Made by a program: the position numbers and the translations under genes
Assembly (NCBI GenBank): GCA_964016885.1
Contig: OZ024743.1
Coordinates: forward strand, 113,460,001 to 113,524,000
Length of the DNA stretch: 64,000 bases
From: Eledone cirrhosa
Taxonomy: Eukaryota
Reading direction: 5' to 3'
Shown here: positions 3,192 through 64,000 of the stretch, one piece after another
How positions within the stretch are numbered: the stretch's first letter is position 1
Layout of the letters: every line of letters starts with the position of its first letter
Notes under the pieces: model-generated
Database searches by the model: none
What the model was told of the DNA's origin: nothing
What the model saw: the letters and a program-made list of their open reading frames with translations, nothing else

Positions 3192-3448
3192 AGTTGTCTT
3201 AAATATGACATTATGCACAAAAATATGTAACACACCAGTCTGTTTTTTGTTTACATTAAAAAAAAACTATTGCATCATACAGGTAGTAGGGTTTACCACA
3301 AGACAAACTGTTGACGTTATTCACTCAGGCACTCAAACAAATAAACATACACTATATGAATATTGTAATTAAAATTTTAAACAGCCCATATTATTTGCAC
3401 AATAAGATGCTGTTGTATTTGAAATCATATTACTTTATACTATATATA

Positions 3449-5292: not shown

Positions 5293-5391
5293 CACACACA
5301 CACAAACACACACCTATATATATAGGTGTTGAAGTTTCCGTTGAAAAAGTCAGAGGACTGAAGAGTGCTCTATGTAAGTTACAGAGCTAAA

Positions 5392-5598
5392 TATTTAATG
5401 TATAATAAATAATACAATATAATTACCTCATTACCAGAGGTTTCCCGAATAAGACAGATACAAGAAACGTCCGCATTCGTTCGTCAGACAAGTCAATTAC
5501 CTTGTCTGACGAACGAATGCGGACGTTTCTTGTATCTGTCTTATTCGGGAAACCTCTGGTAATGAGGTAATTATATTGTATTGTTTATTATACATTAA

Positions 5599-5601
<3 letters not shown>
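5392..5601. mobile_element. Palindrome (101-bp arms, 8-nt spacer), probable Penelope-like inverted pLTR remnant
   Basis: 5392-5492 is the reverse complement of 5501-5601 (one mismatch seen). It contains a hammerhead motif and is followed by (TA)n. Confidence 0.8.
5495..5572 (+). ncRNA. Type I hammerhead ribozyme motif
   Basis: Stem I AATTACCTTGT/ATGAGGTAATT. Core CTGACGA at 5506-5512. Stem II CGAAT...ATTCG. GAAA at 5549-5552. Stem III ACC-TCT-GGT. Predicted cleavage after GUA at 5561. A partial antisense mirror lies at about 5421-5492. Confidence 0.75.
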
Positions 5602-5633
<32 letters not shown>

Positions 5634-6221
5634 CATACACACCCTTGCTAGCAGGAAAAGCAGACGTTAAAATGACGATGATATAATATAATATAATATA
5701 ATATAATTGTCAGTGTTAGTAATAAAACAATGTTTATCACTTGGATAAAAAATGAAATAATGAAACTGTTTATAATTTGAAGGTACCACTTTCGTCTTTC
5801 ACAAGATTTTCCTCTGTGTTTTTGCATCTCTTTAACTAGAGCTGTTGTAGTTTAGGTTCGGAGTCATTATAAAATATTTTTCTGTATTTTTTAACATTTA
5901 TAACATTTTTTACAGTCACTGGCTCCACCGCCACAACAACTACTACTACTACTACTACCACCATCACTACTACTACTACTACTACCACCACCATCAATAC
6001 TACTACTACTCATTTTTGACATGTACTCTATTGATACAGGATACAACAATGTACTATTCAGCATCCACTTTCTGACAGTAAGGTATGAATAAATGAGAAT
6101 TTGACTATCATTTCCAGCAATTCAAGCTCTTACGTGTATATGTAGTTTTAAGATAAGTGTTTTAATGTAGAATAAGAAATGAAGGATTGCATTATTTAGA
6201 TATCTTCTAAATGATAAAACT

Positions 6222-6712
<491 letters not shown>

Positions 6713-7014
6713 GTTCCGTTTGTTGATGGGAGTCTTTAGTTTTTATCTATACTCACCAGCCAGTAACCTAATTATAAATCACAGCTATTTTCTATAGTAG
6801 AGGCCAATGATGTTTACTAAAGGACACACAACAGATTATTAAAACTGGATAAATCTTACCCTGGTGGACAGAAAGAGATTGAACCACTTTGGCTTTCACC
6901 TTGCTGCCTGTTGCCAACTCCCACTCCCCCATAGATTCCTTGAATCTTTTACAGATTGGATTATACAGATTTACTCTCCACCGCTACTGACAGCATGCCA
7001 CTCTATTCACCCCC

Positions 7015-7352
7015 CCCCCCCCCACCCCTAACTGATACCAACACCAATGCCACCTTGTCGCTCTACACCTCATACAATCTCCACCACCAGCAGCAGCACT
7101 ACCATAATCACCACTGTCACCAGCACCACTACAACCATCAACACCACCATCCACACCACCTCATTCTACCCCAAACCATCACTACCACCACCACCAGCAC
7201 CGCCATCCACAACAATCATCAACACCACCACATCATTCTACTCCCAACACCAACATCACTGCCATCAGCACCACCGCAGCATTCTACCTCCAACACCACC
7301 ACATCATTCTGCACCCACCACCACCACCACCATCACTACCACCACTGCCACC
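7015..7352. repeat. Degenerate (CAC)n low-complexity tract
   Basis: Direct inspection. Confidence 0.85.
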
Positions 7353-7968
7353 TCCTTGGGTTTCTTTGGCAGTCTTTATTCTGTTGCAAGAATTTGAATG
7401 AAATAACTTCCTCCCTCCTTCCCACTTTCACCACCATTCCCAACCCCTTAACTAAATAATAAAAATAAATACCTGTAAGGTGGTTAGTGATAACAAGGGC
7501 ATCCAATTGTAGGAGCCATGCCAAAAAAGGGTCAGGAGGACTCTTAAGATGTGTCAAATATCAACACAGCAAATGCGCCCAATGCACTCTGTAAAGTAGT
7601 TGGCAATAAAAAGGGCATCCAACCACGAAGCCTGCCAAACAAAGGACTCTTCAGCTGCCTTGAAAGCATGAGAACTTCCCTAGTGTTGGTGCACAATGAA
7701 ATATACTTAGTAGAGTGTAAGAATGTGAGATGCAGGCCCTCAGCCTATATAAAAGTTCAGTAGCTCCACTAGAGTACTGACTCTGCAACTAGCCATCCAA
7801 TCCTTGCTAGCAGGGAAAACAGACATTAACTGTTATTGGTGATGGTTTCTATTTTCATTTCTTATCACTCAACCTAAAATAACAAGGAAATTGAGAAGAC
7901 ATGGTCATCACTTTCTATCATATACTCTCCTCCATAAATCTAAAGCTTCATTCTTATGTAAAAATCAT

Positions 7969-8197
7969 TTAATTCTTTAGCATTTACATTACTCTATATT
8001 TACTATTATATTTTCATGGCAAAGGCTTTACCTCACATAATTATCTCACAAAATATCAAATCTATAAGATTTTGATATTATTTATTTTGAGAACAATACC
8101 TTAACATCAGTATGAGTGGCCAGTTACAGCTGGTTTGAACAGAAAGAGGTGAGAGAATTCTGGCTGGATATGGCTGGTTTAAATGCTAAAGGGTTAA
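7969..8197 (-). mobile_element. piggyBac-type MITE (about 210-230 bp family)
   Basis: TTAA at both ends, TIR (C)CTTTAGCATTTA...TAAATGCTAAAGGG. Homologous to 38242-38452 and 45638-45868. Confidence 0.8.
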
Positions 8198-8469
8198 ACA
8201 TGTTAGCACCTCAATGTGATTGCTTGAGTTTCTAGATATAGCAGTGAAAACACTCTCAAATTATACACTACTTCCTTAGAATTAGAAGAATATATTGGAT
8301 AATGTTATTAACCAGCACAAGATTTGGACACAAAATGTAAAGGTAGATAAATATCTATCACTACATTATCGAATTCAGTGATTCTGAGCTAGGAGCGTAT
8401 TTTCTGGATATGTTGTTGTTAGCACTAGGTCAACCATGAAGAAGCTGATCTATTTTGTGTGTGTATCTG

Positions 8470-9512
8470 TAAGAAAAGGTGTGGTGTGATGGGTGACTAG
8501 GTGTTTCTGCTAGGAAAGGTGTGGTGTGATGGGTGATTGTGGGTGTGTCTCTGAGGAAAGGTGTGGTGTGGTGTGGTGGATGAATGGGGGTGTGTCTGTT
8601 AGGAAAGTTGTGGTGGGTGATGGCAGGTGTGCCTGTTAGGAAAGGTGAGGTGTGGTGGGTGATTGCAGGTGTGTCTGTTAGGAAAGGTGTGGTGTGGTGT
8701 GGTGGGTGACTGCAGGTGTGTCTGTTAGGAAAGGTGAGGTGTGGTGGATGACTGCAGGTGTGTCTGTGAGGAAAGGTGTGGTGTGAGGGGTGATTGCAGG
8801 TGTGTCTGTTAGGAAAGGTGTGAGTGGTGGGTGATGGTAGGTGTGCCTGATAGGAAAGGTGTGGTGTGGTGGGTGATGGCAGGTGTGTCTGTTAGGAAAG
8901 GTGTGGTGTGGTGGGTGACTGCAGGTATGTCTGTTAGGAAAGGTGTGGTGTGAGGGGTGATTGCAGGTGTGTCTGTTAGGAAAAGTGTGGTGTGGTGGGT
9001 GATTGCAGGTGTGTCTGTTAGGAAAAGGTGTGGTGTGGTGGGTGATGGCAGGTGTGTCTGTTAGGAAAGGTGTGGTGTGGTGAGTGCTTTCAGGTGTGTC
9101 TGTTAGGAAAGGTGTGGTGTGGTGGATGATGGCAGGTGTGTCTGTTAGGAAAGGTGTGGTGTGGTGGGTGATGGCAGGTGTGTCTGTTAAGAAAGGTGTG
9201 GTGTGGTGGGTGATGGCAGGTGTGTCTGTTAGGAAAGGTGTGGTGTGAGGGGTGATTGCAGGTGTGTCTGTTAGGAAAGGTGTGGTGTGGTGGGTGATGG
9301 CAGGTGTGTCTGTTAGGAAAGGTGTGGTGTGATGGGTGACTGCAGGTGTGTCTGTTAGGAAAGGTGTGTCTGTTAGAAAAGGTGTGGTGTGGTGGGTGAT
9401 TGCAGGTGTGTCTGTTAGGAAAGGTGTGGTGTGGTGGGTGATTGCAGGTGTGTCTGTTAGGAAAGGTGTGGTGTGAGGGGTGATTGCAGGTGTGTCTGTT
9501 AGGAAAAGTGTG
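8470..9512. repeat. 42-bp GT-rich minisatellite (about 25 units)
   Basis: Unit GGTGTGTCTGTTAGGAAAGGTGTGGTGTGGTGGGTGATTGCA, which explains the 14-aa periodic ORF 8678-9526. Confidence 0.95.
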
Positions 9513-9649
9513 GAAGAATGCTTCACTGTATCATTGTCATGGAAGGTGTAACATGATGGGTAAGTGTGCTACTACCAGGAAAGATGTCATATTTTGTGTG
9601 GCCGAATTGAAACCATGGAGGATGTGACACAATGGGGGAGTGAACCTGT

Positions 9650-10362
9650 CAGGGATGATGTAGAATTATGGGTAAGTGTACCACTGTCAGAGGAGTTGTG
9701 GTATGATGGGTGAATGTGCCACTGTCAGAGAAGGTGTAGCGTGATGGGTGAATGTGCCACTGTGTGGTAGGATGTGGTATGATGGGTGAGTGTGCCACTG
9801 TCTGGTAGGATGTAACATAATGTGTGTATGTGCCACTGTCAGAGAAGGTGTAATGTGATGGGTGAATGTGCCACTGTCTGGTAGGATGGGATATAATGTG
9901 TGAGTGTGCCACTGTCAGAGAAGGTGTAGTGTGATGGGTGAATGTGCCACTGTCTGGTAGGATGTGGTATGATGGGTGAGTGTGCCACAGTCAGGTTGGA
10001 TGTGACATAATGTGTGAGTGTGCCACTGTCAGAGGTGTAGTGTGATGGGTGAATGTGCCACTGTCTGGTAGGATGTGGTATGATAAGTGATTGTGCCACT
10101 GTCAGAGGTGTAGTGTGATGGGTGAATGTGCCACTGTGTGGTAGGATGTGGTATGATAAGTGATTGTGCCACTGTCTGGTAGGATGTGGTATGATAAGTG
10201 ATTGTGCCACTGTCTGGTAGGATGTGGTATGATAAGTGAATGTGCCACTGTCTGGTAGGATGTGACATAATGTGTGAGTGTGCCACTGTCAGAGGTGTAG
10301 TGTAATGGGTGAATGTGCCACTGTCTGGTAGGATGTGGTATGATATGGTGAGTGTGTCATCA
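9650..10362. repeat. About 38-40-bp minisatellite with alternating unit variants
   Basis: Units anchored on GTGCCACTGTC, followed by either TGGTAGGATGTG... or AGAG(AA)GGTGTAG... Confidence 0.9.
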
Positions 10363-33425: not shown

Positions 33426-35507
33426 GGACCGACACCTCTGGCTTACGCAGTAATGCAGAAGACCCAAGTTCCCATGGGTACAAGCCGAAGCTGAAGCATA
33501 TAGACAATATGCCCCCATGCCCCTCCCACTATAAAGTGGTCGTGTAGGTGTCGCGACAAAAAAGCACCCAGTCCACACTGTAGAGTGGTCGTGTAGGCAC
33601 CACGGTAAAAAAGCACCCAGTCCACACTGTAAAGTGGTCGTGTAGGCACCATGGTAAAAAAGCACCCAGTCCACACTGTAAAGTGGTCGTGTAGGCACCA
33701 TGGTAAAAAAGCACCCAGTCCACACTGTAAAGTGGTCGTGTAGGCACCATGGTAAAAAAGCACCCAGCCCACACTGTAAAGTGGTCGTGTAGGCACCACG
33801 GTAAAAAAGCACCCAGTCCACACTGTAAAGTGGTCGTGTAGGCACCATGGTAAAAAAGCACCCAGCCCACACTGTAAAGTGGTCGTGTAGGCACCACGGT
33901 AAAAAAGCACCCAGCCCACACTGTAAAGTGGTCGTGTAGGCGCCATGGTAAAAAAGCACCCAGTACTTACTGTAAAGTGGTCGTGTAGGCACCACGGTAA
34001 AAAAGCACCCAGCCCACACTGTAAAGTGGTCGTGTAGGTACCACGGTAAAAAAGCACCCAGCCCACACTGTAAAGTGGTGTGTAGGCACCACGGTAAAAA
34101 AGCACCCAGCCCACACTGTAAAGTGGTCGTGTAGGCACCACGGTAAAAAAGCACCCAGTACTTACTGTAAAGTGGTCGTGTAGGCACCACGGTAAAAAAG
34201 CACCCAGCCCACACTGTAAAGTGGTGTGTAGGCACCACGGTAAAAAAGCACCCAGTCCACACTGTAAAGTGGTCGTGTAGGCACCATGGTAAAAAAGCAC
34301 CCAGCCCACACTGTAAAGTGGTCGTGTAGGCACCACGGTAAAAAAGCACCCAGTCCACACTGTAAAGTGGTCGTGTAGGCACCATGGTAAAAAAGCACCC
34401 AGCCCACACTGTAAAGTGGTCGTGTAGGCACCACGGTAAAAAAGCACCCAGCCCACACTGTAAAGTGGTCGTGTAGGCGCCATGGTAAAAAAGCACCCAG
34501 TACTTACTGTAAAGTGGTCGTGTAGGCACCACGGTAAAAAAGCACCCAGCCCACACTGTAAAGTGGTCGTGTAGGCACCACGGTAAAAAAGCACCCAGCC
34601 CACACTGTAAAGTGGTGTGTAGGCACCACGGTAAAAAAGCACCCAGCCCACACTGTAAAGTGGTGTGTAGGCACCACGGTAAAAAAGCACCCAGCCCACA
34701 CTGTAAAGTGGTCGTGTAGGCACCACGGTAAAAAAGCACCCAGCCCACACTGTAAAGTGGTGTGTAGGCACCACGGTAAAAAAGCACCCAGTCCACACTG
34801 TAAAGTGGTCATGTAGGCACCATGGTAAAAAAGCACCCAGCCCACACTGTAAAGTGGTCGTGTAGGCGCCATGGTAAAAAAGCACCCAGTACTTACTGTA
34901 AAGTGGTCGTGTAGGCACCACGGTAAAAAAGCACCCAGTACTTACTGTAAAGTGGTCGTGTAGGCGCCACGGTAAAAAAGCACCCAGTACTTACTGTAAA
35001 GTGGTCGTGTAGGCACCACAGTAAAAAAGCACCCAGCCCACACTGTAAAGTGGTCGTGTAGGCGCCACGGTAAAAAAGCACCCAGTACTTACTGTAAAGT
35101 GGTCGTGTAGGCACCACAGTAAAAAAGCACCCAGTACTTACTGTAAAGTGGTCGTGTAGGCACCACGGTAAAAAAGCACCCAGTACTTACTGTAAAGTGG
35201 TCGTGTAGGCACCACGGTAAAAAAGCACCCAGTACTTACTGTAAAGTGGTCGTGTAGGCGCCACGGTAAAAAAGCACCCAGTACTTACTGTAAAGTGGTC
35301 GTGTAGGCACCACGGTAAAAAAGCACCCAGTACTTATTGTAAATGAGGTTGGTGTTAGGAAGGGCATCCAGCTGTAGAAACTGAGCCAAAATTGGTTCTG
35401 TATGAGCAAGACCCAATCACCTGACCTGGCATTGCCCACAACAGGACAACCCGTCTAACCCATGCTGGTGTGGAGACATTGACGTAAAATGGTGATGATG
35501 ATGATGA
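33426..35507 (+). mobile_element. RTE LINE 3' end with expanded internal minisatellite
   Basis: Last codons of the ORF (DRHLW...MQKT), then the UTR array, then GGTTGGTGTTAGGAAGGGCATCCAGC and the (GAT)n tail. Confidence 0.85.
33530..35342. repeat. 49-bp minisatellite (about 37 units, some of 48 bp)
   Basis: Unit AAAAAAGCACCCAG(C/T)CCACACTGTAAAGTGGTCGTGTAGGCACCACGGT, with a 49-bp period (33607 to 33656). Confidence 0.97.
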
Positions 35508-45868: not shown

Positions 45869-47542
45869 TGTTATTGTCAATTTTAAACTTTATTCCTAAT
45901 CTCACTTACCATTTTGTGCTTCACAGTATATCAGGCCATCCTTCAACTGTTTTTGTAAATTATTAGAAGAGGATTCTAGCCTGTTGTTAAACTCTTCACT
46001 ATCTATGAAGAAAGAGATGCTGCGAGTGGTCCACCATGAGAGAGGGGGGGGGGGGAGAACAGAATGACCCCATTATTTAATTAACATGATATTTTTGATG
46101 GAAGACAAAATTGCATGGAAGACAAAATTGATCTCTATGAGGATTTCCATGTAAAGAAGGAACCAAGCCTTAAATCACTACTTCAAAAACCCACTTCATA
46201 CCAGCATGGGAAATTGCGATCATTGTTTTATGTCTGGTTTACCTTGTTAGTATGAGTTGGTTGAATCTTTTTAGATTCAACTTTCTACAGCTGGATGCCC
46301 TTCCTGACACCAACCCATACTGTATTTTATATGTATTGTGTATACCTGCTATCTTTTTCAACTGCTATGCTGCAGGACATATTGCTGATATGTGATATAA
46401 ACTTTGCTTCAAACATTATTGATTTGATATCAATAATATTTGAAGGGGCGGTGGATTGGCAGTATCGGTAGAGGGTCGGACGCCATGCTTTGCAGCATAG
46501 TTATGGCCCTTTAAGGTCTGAGTTCAAATCCTCCCGAGGTTAACTTTCCTTTCATCCTTACGGGGGGTTGATAAAATAAAGCACCAGTAATACACTGGGA
46601 TAATTGCTGGCCTTGTGTCAAAAGTAGAAACAATTATTGATTTGATAAGAAGAGAGAGAGAGGGAGAGAGACAGACACACAGACTGACAGAAAGAGAGAC
46701 AGAGAGACAGACAGATGATGGGCTTCCTTGGAATTTCTACTTAATTCATTTACATGTCATTGGTTGACCCAGACACTTTCCCAAGCTGCCACGGAGTAGG
46801 ACCAAACCCCGAACCATGTGGTTGCAAGTACAAATATAAAAATGATGAAGATGATGAATGAGTGAAAAAAAGAAGAAAATAGTAATTCAATATCCAAAAT
46901 TAGTTTCAAATTCTTACAATCAATATATTAAATGTGAGCACCTATAATAGTTCCATTCAAATATTTCATTCTATAGAATCAAATATTTTATCAATAAAAA
47001 TATCCATCAGAAAACTTATGAAAAACAAAGATAGATAAACAAACACAAAGAGAAATTGTTTGCATCTATTGGAGAAGGCTCTGATAGTCTGTAAGAAACC
47101 TCACTGACCTTTGGTCAGTATAACTTACACCCAGGAGAAGCAGTTTGATTGATGGCTTAATGCTGGTGCTACTTAAAACATTTACCAATAACCACTGTGA
47201 TAGAAAGCCTTAAAGCTGTGGTTCCTGGGGATTTGATTAATTCTTGTGATACCTTAGTTAAGAGTAGTACACATGAGATTAATATATATAATTGTGATAA
47301 AAGATTAGCATCAAACATCAGAGGTTGCTAATATTTGATATTTGAGAGGAGATAGCATCCATTTTACACTCTTATGTAGCATGTACACTTGAGACTTAAG
47401 TATGAGCCAAAGTTTGAGCAATTACAAAAACACATAATATAATATCAACTTACAACATTACTCTTGTTGGTTGGTAAGAAATATGTAGTATCATCATCCT
47501 TATCAGCAAACAAATATATGTATGTGTGTGTATATATATATA

Positions 47543-47875
47543 GGCACGTGGCTTAGTGGTTAGAGCATTGGCCTCTCAATCGAAAGGTTGTGAGTTCAAT
47601 TCTCAGACCGGGTGATGTGTTGTTTCCTTGAGCAAGACACTTTATTTCACATTGCTCCAGTTTACTCCAGAAATGAGATGATAGGGACTGGGGTCCCTAT
47701 CATTCCACTGCAAAGTGGTCGTGGAGGTGCCACGGCGAAAAAGCACCCAGCACTCACTGTAAATGAGGTTGGTGTTAGGAAGGGCATCCAGCTGTAGAAA
47801 TCAAGCCAGAATCAGTTCCCGTCCCACCCTTGCAAGCAGGGAAAAAGCGGACGTAAAATGAAATGATGATGATGA

Positions 47876-47879
<4 letters not shown>
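47543..47879 (+). mobile_element. SINE family A (tRNA head, core, RTE-derived tail)
   Basis: A and B boxes (TGGCTTAGTGG; GAGTTCAATTC). The 3' end CCCGTCCCACCCTTGCAAGCAGGGAAAA(A)GCGGACGTAAAATG matches the LINE end at 3109-3150. Confidence 0.9.
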
Positions 47880-47921
<42 letters not shown>

Positions 47922-49739: not shown

Positions 49740-51680
49740 TTTCTTCTAAGATTCTGTTGGAGATCCAGAATTTGCTAGCAGTATCACCAGGCATACTTTC
49801 CTATGTGACATTGAAGTCAGAGCTCATGAAGTAAACATTCATCTCTCAACAGCAATGATTAAATCAGTTGCTCTCCTCAGAGGAATTGGGTTACAAGAAG
49901 CAGTCACAGTTCTTAAGACAATTAAAGCAACTGTTGGAGGAAAATACTGTGGATCTGGCCATCCTGGAGCAACTGTTTCTTCAGAGGCTGCCACCAGCCA
50001 CTCCACAGCATTTTGGTGGCTACTAAAGCATCCACTCCTATTGAGGAATTAGTGGATTCAGCTGACAGAATCATGGAGATAGCAGCGCCACTGTCATTTG
50101 TGGCCCAGGAAACACACACCCATCCACGAGTAAGCTCTTTTTCTTCATCCTTTTCTCCCTCTTCTTCCTCATCTTCTGTTTTGGAGTTGGCAGTTCTGGA
50201 GACTTGGCTAGAGAAACAAGATGCACAGTTGAGCATACTTATGACTTAAATGCAGTTGCAACTATGCAGCAAAGCCAGCACATCTCAGCATGCTTTCTAC
50301 CAGTGTCTGCTAGATCAGTCATGCTTGGAAGACTGATACCATATGCTTGTATCCCCGTAAATTCGGCAGAAAGGCCCTCTTTTCTTGAACCCAGTACAAC
50401 AGATACAACACTATTCTGCACAGATACCCCAACACCATGCATCCAGTGTTTAACAGTTGACTTGTGACCCACAGTTTCATGCATCATATCATAACTGAGG
50501 GCCCTCCTGTTTATTCTAAACCCTGCCAACTCACCCCTGATCGCATTAAGATCACTAAAGCAGTGTTCGATTACATGTTGGAGCTAGGCATTGTTCATCC
50601 ATCCTGTAACAGTTAGTCTTCCCCCCTTCACATTGTTCCCAAGAAATCTGCAGGTAACTGACGACGGTTTGAGGAATATCAGTTTCTTAACATACACGAA
50701 ACCCGACAAGTATCCTGTGCCTCACATACAGGACTTCTCTGCTACCCTACATGGAGCCAAGGTCTTTTCAAAAATCAACCTCAAGCGAGTGTACATCCAC
50801 ATTTCTATTGAAGCTGATGACATTTCGAAAATGACTATTATGACTCTTTTCGACCACTTCAAAATTCTTAGAATGCCATTCGGTTTACACAATGCTGCAT
50901 CAATCGTCTAGCGCAGAGGCGTGCAACAGGTGGCCTGTGGGCTACAATCTGATCTGCCAGACCAGTCAGAGTGGCTTGCGATGACTGTAGGCTTATTTAG
51001 ATTTTTTTTCATAACCGTAATACAATTTTCTGTTAGTTGATCTAAAGGACTTCAGATAGGGTTATGTGTGTTATAATTTCCCAGTTCCATGTTATGGTAA
51101 GAAGTTGTGGTGAATCTTTGGAATAGTGCTTAATAAATATTAATGGCCCTTAGAGTTGTTCCAATGTTCAAAATTTGCCCGACAATGGAATATGTTGCAC
51201 ACCCCTGTTCTAGCGTTTCATCGACACAGTACTACGTAGTTTACCCTTCCTCTACGCATGTATTAATGATATGCTGGTAGCCAGCAAATCTCACAAGGAA
51301 CATGAAAGACATCTACGACTACTTTCCAAGCGTTTTTCTCAGTTTGGTGTCATCATCAACCCACAAATGCCTTTTCGGCATTTCTTCTCTCGATTTTTGG
51401 GGACACCACATCGACCAACAAGGAATCCACCCTCTGCACAACAAAGTTAAGTTGATTTTAGATTTCCCCACCCCTAACTCCTTGTATGTGAGTTCTCAGC
51501 CTCATAAATGTTTACTGCCGGTTCATTCCTCAGTGTGCAGAGCTTCTCCAGCCATGAACAGACATCCTATGGCAGTGCAAACGGAAGAACCAACTCTTCA
51601 CTTTTAATAATTCACAAGCAGCTATCTTTCTTAAAACCAAAAGCGTCTTAGTAGGGGCTACAATGCTGCATTACACACTG
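49740..51680 (+). mobile_element. Decayed Ty3/Gypsy LTR-retrotransposon internal region (gag-like and RT)
   Basis: LVDSADRIMEIA (gag-like), PDKYPVPHIQDF, KVFSKINL, RMPFGLHNAA, INDMLVAS, KCLFG..SLDFWGH. No LTRs seen. Confidence 0.85.
50914..51207. mobile_element. hAT MITE inserted in the Gypsy RT
   Basis: TIR CAGAGGCGTGCAAC...GTTGCACACCCCTG. TSD GTCTAGCG/TTCTAGCG at 50906-50913 and 51208-51215. Confidence 0.88.
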
Positions 51681-52104
51681 AGACATATTTCCCCTCTGTT
51701 CTCCCTTCTTACCTTTTCTATGCCTCAGTGTCCTTCTTTGTCTGAATACAGTCCTTATTATTCTCTACTGTTTTAAAATTGTTCCCCTTTCTATATTTTT
51801 TCTACTTTGACTAAGCCCTTGCACACTCTATATCTGTGTAATTTGACAAAAGCATAACTTGTCTCTACCTGTTTTGTTATGTCCTAATGTGCACTGGAAT
51901 CAGTGGTATCAACCTTAATACACGAAAATTGTAGTGATATCCAGAGGTTGACTGAGGAGATGGGACTGTCTGTCTTTCCATTGTCTTTCTCCTGTGTGCC
52001 CCCTATGATATGTAGGTATATCTGTGTGTATATATGTATATGTATGTGTGTATATATATATATATATATGTATGTGTGTATATATATATACACACATACA
52101 CACA

Positions 52105-53537
52105 CAAGCCATGTATAGAGGAACAGTCAGCAAAGTTAGAATTAACAATGAGTATAGTGAAGAATTTAGCGTAAAAGTAAGTGTTCGCCAAGGCTTTCTC
52201 CTTAGCCCCCTCCTGTTTATTATTGTCCTACATGCTATAACAGAAGAGTTTAAGACTGACTGTTCATGGGAACTTCTATATGCAGATGATATAACTCTCA
52301 TAGCTGAAATTATGGCTGAACTAGAGAAGAAATTCCAAACATGGGAGCATGACCTAGAATCAAAAGGTTTTAAAGTTAGCTTGTCTAAGACTAAAGTTTT
52401 AGTATGTAGAAAGGAGAATAGGGCACAGGTGCCCTCTAGGAAATGGCCTTGTTCAGTGTGTAAGAAGGGAGTAGATGGAAATTCTATTCTATGCTCCAAA
52501 TGCAAACTATGGGTACATAAAAGATGTAGTGGGATCACAGATAAGCAATCTAAGAATGTAGATTTTATATATGGCTGATGCTCAGGTACAGTAGGTAGCA
52601 AGGACCCACTGGATACTATCTCCTTCAACTGCCCAGATGGTTCTATGAAAATAGTAGACACTTTCCCTTACCTGGGTAATAAAATCAGCAGTGGAGAGTG
52701 TGTTCTGAAAGTACAGTATAGAACAGTTAGAACAGAATGGAAAAAGTTCAGAGAGCTAATACTGCTGCTGGCCACAAGAGGTTTTTCTCTAAAAATGAAA
52801 GGCAGATTGTATGATGCTTGTATACGAGTGGCAATATTACATGGTAGTGAGACCTGGGCATTGTGTGCAGAAGACTTGCGCAGATTAGAAATAAATAAAG
52901 CTTGCATACTCAGATGGATGTGTAATAGAAATGTATGCGAATGGCAAATATAAACGAATTGAGAGAGAGACTAAGCATAAGAGGTATTAAATCTTGTGTG
53001 CAGGAGAGGAGATTACTTTGGTATGGAGATGTGATGCATATGAAGGATAACAGCTATATAAAAAAGTGCAGAGCGATCGAAATTGAAGGAAGCTACGTAG
53101 TGGGTAGACCTAGAAAAACCTGGGGTGATATGATAAAAACTAACCTGGCTCACTTACACCTCTCTAAGACAATGTCTCTGGATCGAAATCTTTGGCACTA
53201 TGCAGTTATACAGAAGACCCGCCTTCCCTTCCATACAAACTTAAACCTAGTCAGTAGGCACCTCTTAACCCAATATACACCCCCATCCCACACACCCTAC
53301 TCCATCCTCCCAATTTCGTCCACTGTAAAGTATCATGTAGGTGACATGACAAAAAGCACCCAGTCCACACTATAAATGTGGTTGGTGTTAGGAAGGGCAT
53401 CCAGCCGTAGAAAACCTGCCAAAAACAGTTCTATATGAACGATACATGGTCTCCCGACCAATCTCGCCTCAAGTGGGACAAAACCATCCAACCCATGCTA
53501 GCATGGAAGATGGACGTTAAAAGATGATGATGATGAT
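52105..53537 (+). mobile_element. 5'-truncated RTE LINE (RT with PHD-like finger)
   Basis: QAMYRGTVSKVR, LLYADD, WPCSVCKKG...WVHKRC, GRPRKTW, 3' UTR and (GAT)n tail. Confidence 0.93.
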
Positions 53538-53691
53538 ATATATGTATTTATATGTGAAAAAGCTTGCTGAAAACACAAGCCGAAACCGCCGCTTGGCAAC
53601 CGCGTTTGGGATTTTACATCTCTCTCTCTCTATATATATATATATATTAATTCAAAATATAAACAAAAATAGAACTTCTTGTGATCAAGTA

Positions 53692-53758
53692 TATTTTATT
53701 ATACATATTTCAGAGGTACTGAGCTAACTTCAACAGTACGTCCTCATCAGATAAAATA
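53692..53758 (-). ncRNA. Type I hammerhead ribozyme motif (antisense-arm copy)
   Basis: Reverse complement reads TATTTTAT-CTGATGA-GGACGTACTG...CAGTACCTCT-GAAA-TATGTA-TA-ATAAAATA. Confidence 0.8.
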
Positions 53759-54893
53759 AGATGATGCATGACATACCCTGACATAGTAGATGGTTAAGAT
53801 CCAGTCATGGTAGTGAGTAAGATATGATAAAACTCAATATTTATATACCTTAACATTGAGACATGAAAAAACTTACATATAATACATATAATACAGAGGG
53901 TGCGTGTGAGAAAGCTTAAAAATACTTAACAGCAATTTACATAACTGTTAGAGATTCAAATAATTTAAATTATTGAAGAAAAAGAAAGAAAAAAGAAAGA
54001 CAGAGAGAAAACAGATGAGGTGATAATATAGCTAGTAGAAGTATAGAGAGCAAAAGAGAATTGATCAAGGAAAGAGAGACAAAGAGGGATAATTTTTATA
54101 GTGTAAAACATAGGGAGGGATGAATTATATATATCTATACAGAACTATACATTTGGGTATAGCTTTGCAAAAGAGTAAACTCAAATCTTTGAATTATTGA
54201 ATTATCTAGAAGTATTCATCCATCTAAATCTTAAATATAACTGGGTGTAATTATATGAAGGTTAATTTCCAGTCCTTAGTTAATTAGTTATATATACTAT
54301 CCAAACATAACCGGTTGACCGTTAACTTTCAAATCATTTAAGTTAGTTTAGTTATATATAACTAATTAACTAAGGACTGGAAATTAACCTTCATATAATT
54401 ACACCCAGTTATATTTAAGATTTAGATGGATGAATACTTCTAGATAATTCAATAATTCAAAGATTTGAGTTTACTCTTTTGCAAAGCTATACCCAAATGT
54501 ATAGTTCTGTATAGATATATATAATTCATCCCTCCCCATGTTTTACACTATAAAAATTATCCCTCTTTGTCTCTCTTTCCTTGATCAATTTTCTTTTGCT
54601 CTCTATACTTCTACTAGCTATATTATCACCTCATCTGTTTTCTCTCTGTCTTTCTTTTTCTTCAATAATTTAAATTATTTGAATCTCTAACAGTTATGTA
54701 AATTGCTGTTATGTATTTTTAAGCTTTCTCACACGCACACTCTGTATTATATGTATTATATGTAAGTTTTTTCATGTCTCAATGTTAAGGTATATAAATA
54801 TTGAGTTTTATCATATCTTACTCACTACCATGACTGGATCTTAACCATCTACTATGTCAGGATCTTAACCATCTACTATGTCATGCATCATCT

Positions 54894-54960
54894 TATTTTA
54901 TCTGATGAGGATGTACTGTTGAAGTTAGCTCAGTACCTCTGAAATATGTATAATAAAATA
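54894..54960 (+). ncRNA. Type I hammerhead ribozyme motif
   Basis: Stem I TATTTTAT/ATAAAATA. CTGATGA at 54902-54908. Stem II GTACTG/CAGTAC. GAAA at 54941-54944. Quasi-palindromic stem III ATATGTAT. Predicted cleavage after 54952. Confidence 0.8.
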
Positions 54961-55106
54961 TACTTGATCACAAGAAGTACTATTTTTGTTAATATTTTGA
55001 ATTAATATTAATAACTCCAGAAAACCAATTTGTAGAGTGCTTCCAATCTATTGTAAAACTCATTCTTTGATTTATTCATTGAACCTTGTTTAACCTTTAA
55101 ATATAT

Positions 55107-55185
<79 letters not shown>

Positions 55186-55228
55186 ATGATATTAAATAAA
55201 TGGAAACTATATTTATAAAACCATATTT

Positions 55229-55289
55229 ATTCTATTATATATATTTCAAGGGTACCAACAATTTTGGTACGCTATCATCAGATAAAATA
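55229..55289 (-). ncRNA. Type I hammerhead ribozyme motif (the + copy at about 58105-58162 is mutated)
   Basis: Reverse complement reads ATTTTAT-CTGATGA-TAGC-GTACCAA AATTG TTGGTAC-CCTT-GAAA-TATATA-TA-ATAGAAT. Confidence 0.72.
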
Positions 55290-56650
55290 CAAAATGTTTT
55301 ATAAATATTTGACATGAGACCAAGGATAATATACCTTAGCGGTTCAAGTTATCCCTGGGAAGAGAGTACAAAAGTCAGATATTTAAATTATTAATAGGAG
55401 TATGCAAATGATGTTTATATTAGAGGGCTGAAAAAACGTTATTTTAGACGCTATGGAAAATTTAAATAATTATGATAAGGGGGAAAGAGAAAGGAATAAC
55501 GTTAATTTGGGGAAAAAAAATTTGTTACCTCTATTATGAGTTATAATATTGTATATAAATTATATGAAGAATTATGGTTGTAAGTATTTTTATCTTATTA
55601 CATTAGGATAGGTTATATGTATATAAATATCTCTATATATATTAATAAGTTGCGTATGTATTGATTGTTTACATAAACAAATATGAGTTACGAAGGATGT
55701 TGAAATTTTATTTTCAAGTTGTGAGATTAGAATAATTTGTGGATTCAAACATTTTTCAACATTGAGAATGTTTTCAGAATATTGCTAATTTAACAAAGCT
55801 ATATTAATTATCAAACAAAAATTGTTAAAGAAGAAGGAAAAGGAAGACCACTTAAACGTTAATTTAGGGGAAATATATTAGACATTTGCCTATATTTATA
55901 TGGAGAATTATTTATCTTATTATAATAATATATAAATATCTATATATATTTTAATAATAGCATATGTATTTTTATTAAAAGGATAGTTTATTTATAATAT
56001 GAGTTACGAAGGATGTTGATTCATAAATAAATAAATAAATAAGTGGTTGTTCATAATATAAGTTACTAGGGATGTTGATTTTATGTAAATAAATAAGTAG
56101 TTACAATTGATAAGGTTTAAATTAAATTAATGGAGTTATGTATAAAAAGTGTTATATGATTGAAAAGAGGAAAGATAACTCCGATTTTTTTTTAATTATT
56201 AAATGCTAGTGTGGGATTAATTATTTAGTCTAAAGAAATATGAATATTTAAACATCATCTTGAATAGCATACATTTTACTAAAAACAGTTAATGGTTATT
56301 AATCTACATTTAAAAATTAGCTTTAGAGGGTGTCATTAGAAAAATAAAGAATTAAGAAAAAAGAATTAAAGAATTTTAAAAAATTAAAATTAGAATTATA
56401 TAGAAGTACATGAATATATATAAATATCTATACACATACATATGTACATATATATTATAAGAACTTTTAAAGATATTATGATTTAGAGATATTAATGTAT
56501 TAAAAATATAAAATGTTAGTGCAGATAGGATCATTTTGGAGATTAATAGGAATATTATAAGTATATTATAAGTTACATATAGTTCTGAATGTAGAATTTT
56601 GGCGATGTCTGCAATAACTAAATAATTCTGTTCTGAGGTTAATAGAGTAT

Positions 56651-56846
56651 TCATTATCTTGGAAAACGATTTCAAAAGCACCTACCTGCTTACCGAAATA
56701 CGGCCTTATCAAGATTCTGTAAATTATGTATTGAAGACATTTTTCATATAATTAATTGTAAAAACTCTATTAACCCCAGGACAGAAATATTTAGTTCTTG
56801 CAGACATCGCCAAAATTCTACATTCAGAACTATATGTAACTTATAA
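56651..56846 (+). pseudogene. Penelope-like GIY-YIG endonuclease C-terminal fragment (Neptune-like)
   Basis: SLSWKTISKAPT... then a frameshift, then SRFCKLCIEDIFHIINCKNSINPRTEIFSSCRHRQNSTF...stop. This matches the W.I...A.P / C.LC..E...I / N.R.E..S.CRH signature. Confidence 0.75.
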
Positions 56847-59414
56847 TGTTCCTATTAATCTCCAAAATGATCCTATCTGCTCTAACATTTTATATTTTTA
56901 ATACTTTTAATATATTAATATCTCTAAATCATAATATCTTAAAAATGTCTTATAATATATATATGTATGTGTGTATGTGTATAGATATTTATATATATTT
57001 ATGTACTTCTATATAATTCTAATTTTAATTTCAATTTTTTTTAATTCTTTAATTCTTTAAGTCTTTTTTCTTAATTCTTTATTTTTCTAATGACACCCTC
57101 TAAAGCTAATTTTTAAATGTAGATTAATAACCATTAACTGTTTTTAGTAAAATGTATCCTATTCAAGATGATGTTTAAATATTCATATTTCTTTAGACTA
57201 AATAATTAATCCCACACTAGCATTTAATAATAAAAAAAAAAAATCGGAGTTATCTTTCCTCTTTTCAATCATAAAACACTTTTTATACATAACTCCATTA
57301 ATTTAATTTAAACCTTATCAATTGTAACTACCTATTTATTTACATAAAATCAACATCCCTAGTAACTTATATTATGAACAACCACTTATTTATTTATTTA
57401 TTTATGAATCAACATCCTTCGTAACTCATATTATAAACAAACTATCCTTTTAATAAAAATACATATGCTATTATTAAAATATATATAGATATTTATATAT
57501 TATTATAATAAGATAAATAATTCTCCATATAAATATAGGCAAATGTCTAATATATTTCCCCTAAATTAACGTTTAAGTGCTCTTCCTTTTCCTTCTTCTT
57601 TAACAATTTTTGTTTGATAATTAATATAGCTTTGTTAAATTAGCAATATTCTGAAAACATTCTCAATGTTGAAACATTTTTGAATCCACAAATTATTCTA
57701 ATCTCACAACTTGAAAATAAAATTTCAACATCCTTCGTAACTCATATTTGTTTATGTAAACAATCAATACATACGCAACTTATTAATATATATAGAGATA
57801 CTTATATACATATAACCTATCCTAATGTAATAAGATAAAAATACTTACAACCATAATTCTTCATATAATTTATATACAATATTATAACTCATAATATAGG
57901 TAACAAATTTTTTTTCCCCAAATTAACGTTATTCCTTTCTCTTTCCCCCTTATCATAATTATTTAAATTTTCCATAGCGTCTAAAATAACGTTTTTTCAG
58001 CCCTCTAATATAAACATCATTTGCATACTCCTATTAATAATTTAAATATCTGACTTTTCTTCTCTCTTCCCTTCACTTTCCAGGGATAACTTGAACCGTT
58101 AAGGTATTTTATCTGATAGCGTATCAACATTTTTGGTACCCTTCAAATGTATATAATAGAATAAATATTGTTTTATAAATATAGTTTCCATTTATTTAAT
58201 ATCATTGAATACTTACTCCAGAAAATCTGTCGAGTGCTCTGAATCAGTTATAAACATCTATATTTGTTGGATTTCCAACAAATTAAATATCTCCTCTACA
58301 CACACACATATATATATATATATACACACACTTATATAAATACATATACATATATGTATTTATATATGTATTTATTTATTTATACACACAAACACACACA
58401 CATACATATATACTGTATATATGCAGTTGCTCTTTGAGTATTTATTTCTGCAGGGCATTAACAATGTACAATACACAATGCTACAATGCACACTGCATAA
58501 TTTAAAATTTTAAATTGCTATCCCAGTTGTGTCAATTCTGTTGCTAAATCAAATAGATTTGAACTATTGAAAATGAGATGTTGAATTTGCAAGTTGGTTA
58601 AGCATTACATTCCTGAAGCAAAGGAACCAAGTTTAATTGCATTCTTCCTACCTTGGAATTAATCTTATTTTTCCTTCTAATTTATAGAATCAATTCCATA
58701 AAAGCTATAGAGATGTTGGACTTCCAAGTTAGTTTCTAATTAAAGTTGGTGTCCCCTCGACATCATCTATATAATGAAGTTACAGTTGCACACTTTGAAG
58801 TATATTCTCAAAGTGTGTGATTGTGTGAGTATATTTGCCTATATCACACATGAAAAGAAATATACATGTATAGACATATATATGTGTGTATAAAATATAT
58901 ATATACATAATCATCATCATTGTTTTTTTAGTCAATTTTTTTTCCATGTTGGTATGGGCTTGAAGGGACTTTAGTAGGCAGTATTCTATAGTTAGATGCA
59001 GTTCCTGGCACCAACCCTTTTAGTCGATGCTTAATGTGTTGGGATGTAGTGCACCAATTCTAAACCACATGTATGCATTAGATATATATTTAAACCTAGC
59101 AATAGGGATTACAAAGGACCGCAAGGGCTGGCACTATGCTGGTGAAAACCAATGGAACAGCATACAATGTGACCTTACTTATACATGTGTCTCCCCCTTC
59201 CACCAACACTCCATGGCAGCTATCTTCACCATCACTACAGACCCCCACTTCATCTATGATCTCTTCTGTATTCATTCTTTAGCTGGTGCCTCCTCTAAAG
59301 CCCTTAGATACTCTTACTATCCACCCTAGTAACTACTATATATATTTATACGTACATTTATATATATGTACGTATAAATATATAAATGTATGTATGTGTA
59401 TATATATATATATA

Positions 59415-59949
59415 ATATAAAATCAAAAGATGGTTAAAAGAGTTCCATGTATTTTATTATGCGCATTTCAAAAACAAATATCATGGGATGATATTTGTGT
59501 TCTTATCTGATGAGAACGTAAATATCGTCCCATGATGGAGGCACATGGCTTAGTGGTTAGAGCATTGGCCTTGCAATCGAAAGGTTGTGGGTTCAATTCT
59601 GAGACCGGGTGATGTGTTGTTTCCTTGAGCAAGACACTTTATTTCACATTGCTCCAGTTTACTCAGCTGTAGAAATGAGATGATAGGGACTGGGGTCCCT
59701 ATCATTCCACTGCAAAGTGGCCTTGGAGGTGCCACGGCAAAAAAGCACCCAGCACTCACTGTAAATGAGGTTGGTGTTAGGAAGGGCATCCAGCTGTAGA
59801 AATCAAGCCACAATCAGTTCCCGTCCCACCCTTGCAAGCAGGGAAAAAGTGGACGTAAAATGAAATAATGATGATGATGATGATATTTGTTTTTGAAATG
59901 CGCATAATAAAATACATGGAACTCTTTTAACCATCTTTTGATTTTATAT
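59415..59949. mobile_element. Hammerhead-centred palindrome interrupted by a SINE
   Basis: The left arm 59415-59507 is mirrored by 59509-59536 plus 59885-59949. The reconstituted ribozyme reads TTAT-CTGATGA-GAACGTAAATATC..GATATTTGTTTTT-GAAA-TGCGCA-TA-ATAA. Confidence 0.8.
59537..59884 (+). mobile_element. SINE family A, full length
   Basis: Same head, core and RTE tail as 47543-47879. Confidence 0.92.
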
Positions 59950-60106
59950 CATTTATAATCTAGTCCTATAAACTGTTGAGTGCTACTTATCCGATATTTG
60001 CATTGCTTTATTGTGCTACAATAAAACTCACCTCCTACATATATATATATATATATATATATATAGATATATATAGATATAGATATATACATATATATAC
60101 ACATAT

Positions 60107-60752
60107 AATTCAAAATTCAATTAGACTAAGGATTAGTATTATTCTCATTTATTTATATATCTCTACGGGTGTTTCAATGCGGCTGGAGCATCTCATCATT
60201 TGTGGAGAAAAAAACGTATTATCAGTAAAAAGAATTTCTCCACACTTCATGAGATACTCTATCCACATTGAAACACCCGTAGAGATATATAAATAAATAA
60301 ATAAATAATAATAATAATTGTTTCTACTTTTGGCACAAGGCCAGCAATTATCCCAGTGCATTACTGGTACTTTATTTTATCAACCCCGTAAGGATGAAAG
60401 GCAAAGTTAACCTAAGCGGGATTTGAACTCAGACTGTAAAGGACTGTAACTCTATGCTTCAAAGCATGGTGTCTGACTCTCTACCAATACTGCCAATCTA
60501 CCGTCTTTAATAATAATAATTGTTTCTATTTTTGGCACAAGGCCAGCAATTATCCCAGTGTATTACTAGTGCTTTATTTTATCGACCCCCTAAGGATGAA
60601 AGGCAAAGTTAACCTCGGCGGGATTTTAACTCAGACCATAAAGGGACGTAACTCTTTGCTGCAAAGAATGGCATCCGACTCTCTACCGATATTGCCAATC
60701 CACCACCCTTTTAATAATAATAATAAGCCTTGGTCTTATTGAATTTTGAATT
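60107..60752. mobile_element. Older palindrome with degenerate hammerhead, right arm interrupted by two SINE-B copies
   Basis: 60107-60210 is mirrored by 60235-60300 plus 60715-60752. The minus-strand motif reads ATGATGA-GATGC..GCATT-GAAAC-ACCC-GTA. Confidence 0.7.
60313..60710 (-). mobile_element. Two tandem SINE family B copies
   Basis: Copies at 60313-60508 and 60516-60710, each bounded by (AAT)n. Confidence 0.9.
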
Positions 60753-60897
60753 GTAAATGGTCTGCTACTGTAACTATCCTTTATTCATCCAGTTTATGTT
60801 CACTCCTGAAGAACGAAGTGTAAAAAAAAGTACAGTGAGCTTAACTAATCTTACCAATGAAAATAGTAAATTATTACACTAAAACCTCATATATTGC

Positions 60898-61384
60898 ATA
60901 TATATATATACATATTTATATATATAAGATGTGTGTGTGTGTATAAATATATGTGTGTGTGCGTATGTATATATATGTTTGTATGTATGTATATATATAT
61001 ATGTGTGTGTATATATATATATATATACATATGAATGAATGCAGAAATATATGTATGTATATATCTATGTGTGTGTGTATATATATATATACATATGAAT
61101 GTATATATATATATATATATATATATGAATGTATATATATATATATATATATGAATGTATATATATATATATATATATATGAATGTATATATATATATAT
61201 ATATATATGAATGTATATATATATATATATATATATATGAATGTATATATATATATATATATATATGAATGTATATATATATATATATATGAATGTATAT
61301 ATATATATATATATATATACATATCAATGTATGTATATATATATATATATATACATATGAATGTATATATATATATATATATGA

Positions 61385-61959: not shown

Positions 61960-64000
61960 TCATCATCATCATCATCATCATCAGGTTTAGAGTCCGTGTT
62001 CCACGCTTGCATGGGTTTGGACGGGGGTTTTCCCACTTGAGGCAAGGGTGGTTGTCTTGCTCGCATAGGACTGTCTGGCGGGTTTTCTACAGTTGGATGC
62101 CCTTCCTAACACCAACCACATTTACAGTGTAGGGCTGGGAGGTTTTTACCGTGTTGCCTACACGGCCACATTACAGCGTGGACTGTCTGGCGGGTTTTCT
62201 ACAGCTGGATGCCCTTCCTAACACCAACCACATTTACAGTGTGGGGCTGGGAGGTTTTTACCGTGTTGCCTACACGGCCACATTTACAGCGTGGACTGTG
62301 TGTTTTTTTGTCGTGACACCTACACGATCTCATTTGTTTCGGCCTGGATGTTGTGGGACCAACATAACTTTACATTGAAAGGGGCGGTGTGGATGGGGTG
62401 GAGGTGGTGGGACGGGGGGGGTTGATAGAGATGCCTACTGACTGTAGTAGGTTTTTACTTTGTATTTAGGTAAGGCGGGTCTTCTCTATTACTGAGTAGC
62501 GCCAAAGGTCTCGGTCCAGTGACATTGTCTTGGAGAGGTGTGAGGTCGGAATTTATCAGCTCGTCCCATGTTTTTCTGGGTCTGCCTACTCCGTGGCTAC
62601 CGTCTATCTTTATTGCCCTGCACTTTGTTATACAGCTGTCGTCTTTCATGCGCATCACGTGACCGTACCAATGTAGCCTTCTCTCGAGTAAACAACATCT
62701 GATCCCTCTTATTTCTAATTTTTTCCTTAGTTCGTTTATGCTTTGCCGTTCACGTATATTACTATTGCACATCCAGCGGAGCATGCAAGCTTCGTTCCTC
62801 TCTAGTCTGCATATATCCTCTGCACACAATGCCCAGGTCTCACTGCCATGCAGCATTGCTGTTTGTATGCAGGCATCGTATAACCTGCCTTTCATTTTTA
62901 GGGAGAACCCTCTAGCGGCTAATAGTGGTATAAGCTCTCTGAACTTTTTCCATCCAGTTCTACTGTACTTTCAGAGCACCCTCCCCCACTGCTGATTTTG
63001 TCACCCAGGTAACGGAAGCTGTCCACTATTTCTATAGAACCCTCTGCGCAGTTGAAGGAGCTAGTATTTTGTGGGCACTTGCTGCTACTTATTGCACCAG
63101 AGCACCGGCCACATGTAAAATCTATGTTCTTAGTTAGCTTACCTGTGATCCCACTACATCTTTTATGCACCCATACTTTGCATTTGGGACATAAAATGGA
63201 GTTTCTACCTACGCCTTTCCTACACACTGAGCATGGCCATTTCCCAGATGGGACTGCCGCCTTATTTTCTTTCCTACAAACTAGAACTTTAGTCTTAGCC
63301 AGGTTAATTTTAAGGCCTTTTGATTCTAGGCCGTGCTTCCATGTTTGGAATTTCTTCTCTAGTTCGGTCATTGATTCAGCTATGAGCGTTAGATCATCTG
63401 CGTATAGGAGTTCCCATGGGCAGCCGGTCTTGAACTCCTCTGTTATTGCCTGAAGGGCAATAATAAATAGTAGGGGGCTAAGAACAGAGCCCTGATGGAC
63501 ACCAACTTTTACGCTAAACTCTTCACTATATTCGTTGTTAATTCTAACCTTACTGACTGTTTCTTTATACATGGCTTGTATAGCTCTCACAAGCCATTCG
63601 TCAACACCTAGTTTTCTAAGAGACCACCAGATAATGGAACGGGGGACTCTGTCGAAGGCTTTCTCCAAGTCGACGAAAGCTAAGTATAGGGGTTTACTTT
63701 TAGCTAGGTACTTCTCCTGTAGTTGTCGTACAATGAAAAGAGCGTCTGTGGTACTTTTGCCTGACACAAATCCGAACTGCATTTCATCTAGATCAATTCT
63801 CTCTCTGATTAGTTGCGCTATTACTTTTTCCGTGACCTTCATGACCTGGTCGATTAATTTAATGCCTCTATAGTTACTCCTATCTAGGGCATCTCCTTTT
63901 CCCTTATAGCAGTTAACGATGATGCTGCTACGCCAGTCCTTCGGAACAACCCCATTCTGTACGACTTGGTTAACTATCCGGGTGACCATGGTGTGTCCCA
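61960..64000 (-). mobile_element. Young RTE LINE continuing past the window end (RT with PHD-like finger)
   Basis: Open 356-aa ORF at 62919-63989 with NYRGIKL, QFGF, DLEKAFD, GVHQGSVLSP, YADD, the C4HC3 finger and FRYLG. One small frameshifting deletion near 62960. 3' UTR and (GAT)n tail. Confidence 0.96.

Follow-up and report, generated by a model that had tools for sequence, protein, structure and literature searches.

Inverted, truncated ends of Penelope-like elements in TA repeats of Eledone cirrhosa, probably left by four Hydra-type families

Penelope-like elements (PLEs) of the Hydra clade combine a C-terminal GIY-YIG endonuclease (EN) lacking the CCHH motif with a CxCX5C linker, the motifs DKT, RWK and CxxC plus CxH, (TA)n targets and hammerhead ribozymes (PMC8557442; here and below, what is said of published work refers to the parts of each source that were covered). 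The clade was described from 27 families, few of them outside cnidarians, and its supplement lists Hydra-1_Obim of Octopus bimaculoides; Penelope-13_HM has an inverted 5′-truncated copy with a hammerhead on both strands (PMC8557442, supplements S1 and S2). Minimal PLE hammerheads did not cut as a monomer, and dimers cut weakly (PMC4209133). In Anolis, the protein of the Poseidon element PAc, a predicted dimer, cuts both strands of an AT-rich target and starts reverse transcription at two sites that bound the tail; its hammerhead needed the protein and was dispensable for insertion in vitro (PMC11167929). Here we analyze 64,000 nucleotides of Eledone cirrhosa (assembly GCA_964016885.1, contig OZ024743.1, positions 113,460,001 to 113,524,000), hereafter the window, in which four palindromes with hammerhead motifs lie within 7.3 kb of TA-rich sequence.

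The four palindromes are very probably separate insertions of four Hydra-type PLE families, each consisting of two 5′-truncated 3′ ends that meet head to head within a TA repeat, probably as a result of cutting and priming on both strands. Self-BLAST of the window located the inverted duplications at 53644–55008, 55184–58207, 59407–59957 and 60132–60315, in agreement with a preliminary description of this DNA; combined with an arm alignment, it extended the fourth to 60757 after bridging two 202-bp repeats in its right arm. We refer to the palindromes as elements 1 to 4, to their families as F1 to F4, and to loci fetched from the same genome (3.0 Gb) by L-numbers. The parts of the cluster, including its untranslated regions (UTRs), open reading frame (ORF) remnants and repeats resembling short interspersed elements (SINE-like), are listed below; pLTR denotes the pseudo-long terminal repeat of PLEs.

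53644–54352, minus strand: element 1 (F1), longer 5′-truncated 3′ UTR copy; 3′ end flush with (TA)n; 92% to the 3′ UTR of the full-length copy L033
53692–53758, minus strand: minimal type I hammerhead of element 1, intact; predicted cut after 53700
54297–54352: unpaired centre of element 1
54353–55008, plus strand: shorter copy of element 1, with an arm-specific 24-bp tandem duplication at 54825–54883
54894–54960, plus strand: minimal type I hammerhead of element 1, intact; predicted cut after 54952
55009–55100, plus strand: F1 tail, 92 nt; the same sequence lies between upstream pLTR and ORF start in L033
55101–55183, no strand: (TA)n target tract common to elements 1 and 2
55184–56640, minus strand: element 2 (F2), inverted copy, flush with (TA)n
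55228–55289, minus strand: intact-core hammerhead of element 2, whose stem II has U.U at its base
56642–58207, plus strand: main copy of element 2, with ORF end, 1.36-kb 3′ UTR and broken hammerhead (about 58105–58163); 84% to the full-length F2 copy L151
56646–56846, plus strand: last GIY-YIG endonuclease codons, with CxxC and CxH; E 2e-7 to L033, near-identical to L151
58208–58297, plus strand: F2 tail, about 90 nt
59412–59502, minus strand: element 3 (F3), inverted copy, flush with (TA)n, in which just the 3′ part of the hammerhead is retained
59503–59949, plus strand: plus copy of element 3; core at 59507–59513, stem I of 4 bp, cleavage predicted after 59906
59539–59886, plus strand: SINE-like repeat within loop II of the element 3 hammerhead, 348 bp; 95% to window 47542–47883
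59950–60038, plus strand: F3 tail, 89 nt; the TA tract common to elements 3 and 4 comes next
60105–60230, minus strand: element 4 (F4, old), inverted copy; hammerhead-like relic without C3 and stem I
60235–60757, plus strand: plus copy of element 4, with two 202-bp SINE-like repeats at 60306–60724
60758–60874, plus strand: F4 tail; 80% to the tail of L286

As previously described, all four palindromes start at a TA tract, with which their left end is flush; the right end runs into a tail. This tail had been called short and measures 86–97 nt in most copies of F1–F3. Substitution divergence between the arms amounted to 1.2% for element 1, 2.4% for element 2, 0% for element 3 (over 70 bp) and 12.3% for element 4, with 2, 9, 2 and 4 gaps in the respective alignments, and the two halves of element 3 overlap at the inner junction by a 9-nt near-palindrome. 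The repeats within the cluster are termed SINE-like because of their dispersed copies and tRNA-like head; no tRNA gene was predicted in 53000–61000 by ARAGORN.

Every arm has dispersed copies in its own genome (first-look candidates: 1983 for F1, 2372 for F2, 665 for F3 and 216 for F4). A genome-wide search with the arms recovered full-length PLEs with reverse transcriptase (RT) and GIY-YIG endonuclease (L033 for F1, L151 for F2), bearing out the proposal that the palindromes are inverted 5′-truncated PLE ends from several families. L033 comprises an inverted truncated copy with tail, a pLTR with tail, an ORF (2231–4574) whose 5′ part carries one in-frame stop and one frameshift, a 3′ UTR of 2.2 kb and a terminal pLTR that directly abuts TA. 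This structure and the classes of ends observed together display the PLE architecture of a partial tandem of pLTRs, an inverted 5′-truncated copy and an optional tail. In several loci (L149–L152, L154 and L156; L225–L229), F2 and F3 ends follow an EN at constant spacing, the centre of element 2 being itself the end of the F2 ORF, and in L141 and L286, which are 76.5% alike, a degraded ORF of one family lies between F4 ends. By motifs read from alignments, an RT ORF with a GIY-YIG-type endonuclease is joined to the ends in L033, L151/L152, L225 and L141/L286. ORFs of other families beside F3 or F4 ends in L221 and L222 were attributed to chance and not counted as links. A further F2-type palindrome lies at L049:8481–8738, 8.5 kb past the right end of the window.

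The palindromes had initially been taken as unrelated. Because the ORF proteins of F1–F3 are 48–63% identical, and the DNA ends and tails of F1 and F2 are homologous (for the 3′ ends and tails of elements 1 and 2, alignment scored higher than in any of 300 shuffles), we consider the families related. The 3′ ends of elements 1 and 3 and of elements 2 and 3 gave borderline results, with 2 and 10 of 300 shuffles as high, and element 4 had no DNA likeness to the ends of elements 1–3 in the same shuffle-tested alignment. Searches returned 115 protein homologues of 28–42% identity, nearly all with uninformative names (2 informative).

On motifs and architecture, F1–F3 appear to belong to the Hydra clade, with RWK as the deviating motif. 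Their EN is C-terminal and lacks CCHH, a single Cys standing between the GIY and YIG halves. The linker CxCX5C occurs in F1, F2 and F3, whereas its first Cys is lost in two degraded F4 copies; DKG is replaced by DKT in F1, F2 and F3 and could not be read in F4. The motifs CxxC and CxH surround the conserved EN residues E and N at window 56646–56846 and in L151, the first Cys being Tyr in L033. Among the F1–F3 ends, 55 of 87 were flush with the microsatellite and 29 tailed; F4 ends are inserted in (TA)n and have no canonical hammerhead. With the published clade these elements share the C-terminal GIY-YIG domain without CCHH, DKT, CxCX5C, terminal CxxC and CxH, the (TA)n target, a hammerhead close to the 3′ end in which the core is followed by U or G and GAAA is preceded by U, a tail at one end, and an inverted copy like that of Penelope-13_HM with a hammerhead on both strands (PMC8557442). 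That work has already published the architecture as such: Hydra PLEs that target (TA)n and have hammerheads and inverted copies, with a family from Octopus among them. Our elements differ from its description in several respects: F1 extends over about 4.5 kb from its ATG and 3′ UTRs measure 1.3–2.2 kb, whereas Hydra elements are generally below 3 kb; tails are about 90 nt instead of 30–40 bp; the hammerhead sequences, compared by eye, differ from the one listed for Hydra-1_oBim; and tens of thousands of copies here stand against a small number of extra Hydra families there (PMC8557442).

Other assignments were rejected. The CX2-5CxxC linker and CCHH motif of the Neptune clade are absent from F1–F3, which fit the Hydra definition (PMC8557442), and the Naiad clade requires an EN N-terminal to the RT and no canonical hammerhead, whereas the EN is C-terminal here. 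Non-LTR retrozymes likewise are non-coding, hammerhead-bearing and PLE-derived (PMC7229834; bioRxiv 10.64898/2026.07.22.740005); they form head-to-tail arrays (PMC7229834), in contrast to elements 1–4, which are head-to-head pairs with no tandem head-to-tail units.

The two ends of a pair proved to be unequal in a regular manner. Among outward-facing F1–F3 pairs of the fetched loci, one tailed end was combined with one flush end in 59 of 69 cases (7/9 for F1, 14/18 for F2 and 38/42 for F3), which points to priming on two strands. Without the 3 pairs from the window and the 23 whose query had included the tail, the rule held in 35 of 43 (P 2e-5 at p 0.5). Neighbouring F3-type motifs formed 29 outward and only 3 inward pairs among the first 100 matches. 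In the mechanism we propose, the element's endonuclease would cut both strands of the TA repeat, and both cut ends would prime reverse transcription. One complementary DNA (cDNA) would begin at the end of the pLTR, and the second roughly 90 nt beyond it on the RNA, thereby including the tail; both would stop early and become joined at their 5′ ends, and the hammerhead, as part of the 3′ pLTR, would be carried along by every copy. On balance, we lean towards such a course, in which both strands of a cut TA tract serve as primers, each start site yields one cDNA and the truncated 5′ ends are then joined. PAc of Anolis, which belongs to another clade and has a hammerhead that overlaps the ORF start, provides the biochemical parallel of two tail-bounding start sites; one-tail-one-flush palindromes as found here are not described for it in the parts of PMC11167929 covered.

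The same elements could give rise to palindromes without a second primer if a single cDNA snapped back at a short homology and was then copied. We regard this as rather unlikely, although the arms of elements 1 and 2 are 98–99% alike and element 3 has its near-palindrome at the junction. Another feature fits either snap-back or re-amplification of a short palindrome, namely that 14 of the 29 F3-type pairs are near-equal, with 174–200 bp between motifs. One cDNA, however, should leave equal ends, contrary to the tailed and flush ends of the 59 pairs; moreover, the tail is found on the longer or on the shorter arm, and the unpaired centres range from 56 bp up to whole ORFs. A MITE (miniature inverted-repeat transposable element) or foldback DNA transposon with a captured ribozyme deserves scarcely any credence. 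The F3 palindromes of 200–350 bp in TA do resemble MITEs, and some may be annotated as such, but the arms represent 3′ UTRs and ORF ends of RT elements, a link that refutes the MITE reading, and inner truncation points vary while outer ends are unequal. Finally, long near-perfect palindromes beside microsatellites are prone to assembly artefacts, and ours are known from the assembly alone. Fold-back artefacts nevertheless seem extremely improbable, as the preliminary description had held, given that the arms differ by substitutions and indels and carry private SINEs and a duplication, that the two ends differ according to the family end rule, and that dozens of further loci show this architecture with other truncation points.

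Several observations weigh against Hydra-type ends joined after two-strand priming. Ten of the 69 pairs break the end rule, four being tail-tail (L033, seen in part, accounts for one), two flush-flush and four of other kinds, and F4 pairs were mostly unclassifiable, with flush-tail in 1 of 12 rows. The start sites of the anole PLE were not seen to differ between strands, so that one of each is not predicted by that work itself (PMC11167929). As to the proteins, the place of the Hydra-clade RWK (PMC8557442) reads RWR in F1, RWI in F3 and RRLKW in F4, and was not recovered in F2. No Pfam family matched the L033 ORF pieces or the window peptide, and Pfam GIY-YIG was obtained on the related EN of L089 only (1 of 5 peptides), at an E of 0.0013, below the cut-off. 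The Hydra placement was made by motif comparison, and the link of F4 to an ORF comes from degraded copies.

Hammerheads were identified with a strict descriptor and with a relaxed version accepting any pair at the base of stem II. Within the cluster, the strict descriptor matched element 1 only, in both arms, and the relaxed one added the left arm of element 2 only. The type I core (CUGANGA, GAAA, UH and three stems) is present in these three arms and in families F1–F3, while the other five of the eight arms are broken. The claim that each palindrome carries a hammerhead and its antisense mirror therefore held for element 1 and failed elsewhere: the right arm of element 2 has a 3-nt core deletion and CAAA in place of GAAA, the plus hammerhead of element 3 is split by the SINE-like repeat in loop II, its stem I is reduced to 4 bp and its mirror arm has no intact core, and both arms of element 4 lack C3 and a stem I adjoining the core. 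The stem III strings given in the preliminary description and its predicted cut sites after 54952 and 59906 match the sequence. Among the best other copies, 24/29 of F1, 21/29 of F2 and 19/29 of F3 passed the relaxed descriptor (64/87 together), and 0 of 28 of F4. In F4 (window 60105–60315; L112–L140), stem II, GAAAC and the GUA site are kept, U or G variants replace C3-U4, and the adjacent stem I is missing in all copies examined; judged by its sequence, F4 seems to be a family amplified or decayed without a canonical ribozyme.

As a control, we scanned 59 arbitrary 10-kb windows (590 kb; loci L241–L280 and L306–L324). The hammerhead motifs are not chance matches, because the relaxed descriptor gave 39 matches in this 0.59 Mb of real DNA and 1 in 2.95 Mb of shuffled DNA. 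The stems also covary, a point on which the preliminary description had made its reading depend: in a comparison of 12 related motifs, 95% of the cells were paired and both partners varied in 13 of 17 pairs, with 0 of 500 shuffles as high and 30–55% pairing in slid controls, although the rows were picked by a pairing descriptor and lean towards the structure. The Rfam check proposed there gave no hammerhead in 53650–55400 at E up to 10, nor for the whole window among the matches listed (150 of 210); the matches listed were microRNA models on repeats and hairpins only. Like the minimal PLE hammerheads of PMC4209133, the motifs are of type I with a long stem II, a short palindromic stem III and predicted dimer activity, and occur as dispersed singles or as opposite-strand pairs 100–700 bp apart. 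In contrast to that study, the G10.1-C11.1 pair is mostly replaced, G and C occupying the first and last stem II positions in 3 of 39 control motifs. In 34 of the 39, stem III could pair with itself and leave no more than one position unpaired, a property that the descriptor does not require and that fits the dimer model of PMC4209133. As a dimer, ACACCCGT pairs at just 4 of 8 positions; between the element 1 motif and an uninterrupted F3 motif, stronger dimer cutting would be expected of ATGCGCAT (−10.5 against −2.2 kcal/mol).

By analogy with other PLEs, the hammerhead may be suited to dimer cutting, with the palindromic stem III joining two motifs in transcripts that span the tandem pLTRs of full-length elements. 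In the window stubs, the motifs are predicted to be silent, with five of eight arms broken, no second same-strand copy in cis and a read-through hairpin that would bury the motif; they should be passengers. The predicted fold of the element 1 RNA (about −1040 kcal/mol) has the whole core paired on both strands. With the 3′ ends pointing outward, transcription entering from either side reaches the antisense arm first, and given this order and the paired core, the ribozyme should hardly compete with its mirror, unlike in the scenario first put forward.

The control windows correspond to 66 motifs per Mb (47–90), or about 198,000 (141,000–271,000) when extrapolated to the genome. Exact whole-genome patterns returned 75,702 cores of the element 1/2 type (control 90), 21,984 of the element 3 type (control 0), the patterns of these two types leaving stems I and II unchecked, plus 24,767 from a further family whose stem III is ACTAGT (control 0), together 122,453 hammerhead cores that are ribozymes by sequence prediction. 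Near-identical loci (L067/L074, L101/L102 and L114/L115) may inflate the counts slightly; such loci (C1:205318500–205326400 and 205658200–205666100; C26:20832694 and 20857650) suggest segmental duplications or uncollapsed haplotypes. About 10 distinct hammerhead types, nearly all with a palindromic stem III, were seen in the 59 control windows, 13 of which contained Hydra-type ORF pieces. Many matches of the ACTAGT family (L325–L332) lie in head-to-tail arrays of about 420–490 bp, as in retrozymes, some arrays being joined head to head, and this retrozyme-like family is a good candidate source of circular RNAs.

These numbers lie far above the roughly 2,000–9,000 minimal hammerheads per genome reported previously (PMC4209133). 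Other published counts are more than 6,000 for a coral, about 5,000 for a mussel and up to 120,000 retrozymes for the much larger axolotl genome (PMC7229834); 14,255 active retrozymes are given for axolotl elsewhere (bioRxiv 10.64898/2026.07.22.740005), and a further source speaks of "thousands" (PMC7761336). The literature searched, outside of which lay most subscription journals, Repbase and Dfam, contained no cephalopod hammerhead census, no one-tail-one-flush count and no paper combining "Hydra", "Penelope-like" and "twin priming"; octopus or cephalopod and PLE hammerheads occurred together in PMC8557442 alone, and the main text of an Octopus vulgaris repeat paper (PMC13282606) is without hammerhead, ribozyme or Hydra. 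We tentatively suggest, with somewhat more reserve than we hold for the priming step, that an explosion of Hydra PLEs left about 200,000 dimer-type hammerheads, the densest load we found in print, and that thousands of palindromic insertions record asymmetric two-strand priming by a dimeric RT-endonuclease at the pLTR end and the tail end.

The preliminary description had further taken the cluster for one microsatellite hotspot. The insertion of several families in (TA)n was confirmed. Two pairs of elements each have one TA tract in common, and four insertions in 7.3 kb could point to a region that attracts or retains elements and possibly serves as a source of regulatory double-stranded RNA. 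We counted 10 F1–F4-like insertions in 40 arbitrary 10-kb windows, and at the resulting 25 per Mb, a Poisson estimate over the whole span predicts about 66 four-in-7.3-kb clusters per genome. Counted on the approximately 1.5 kb of target DNA, the same cluster is expected about 0.6 times (0.03–7 over the rate range), and therefore shared TA tracts are hit repeatedly. Other-family insertions near known copies numbered 12 in 367 kb versus about 7 expected from control counts, an enrichment that is mild at most. With 5 intact hammerheads in 64 kb, the window is at the genome average, and comparable clusters exist, since one of the 59 arbitrary windows (L279) contains 5 motifs in 10 kb and L226 has four insertions in 6.3 kb. 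The four elements, moreover, are not of one age (arm divergence 1–12%) and two have received SINE insertions, as neutral decay predicts. A special hotspot is accordingly improbable; the cluster represents at most the upper tail of this genome and is ordinary for it, the locus being retrotransposon debris.

Elsewhere in the window, a fifth hammerhead palindrome of another family occupies 5336–5607, with intact motifs at 5424–5495 (minus strand) and 5498–5569 (plus strand) and stem III ACCTCTGGT; its left end is tail-like and its right end flush with (TA)n, and in L266 a Hydra-type ORF is closely preceded by a related motif. Degraded RT fragments of the long interspersed nuclear element type flank the cluster at 52009–53375 and 62455–63873, inverted and 83% alike over 497 bp. 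Upstream, 49750–51776 contains fragments that by their motifs resemble the RT of a long terminal repeat retrotransposon. Minisatellites are present at 33527–35331 (49 bp), 8461–9368 (42 bp) and 9646–10356 (38 bp), and the 49-bp unit matches part of the SINE-like repeat at 59708–59765.

What goes beyond the print we found is the count of 122,453 cores and the end rule seen in 59 of 69 pairs, the locus itself being ordinary. The one-tail-one-flush rule provides a countable genomic signature for how PLE inverted copies and tails form, which is an open question in the parts of PMC8557442 and PMC11167929 covered. Hydra-type PLEs emerge as a major repeat class in this genome, near-intact copies such as L033 included. 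If this holds true and the palindromes are transcribed within introns, they would constitute a large source of double-stranded RNA.

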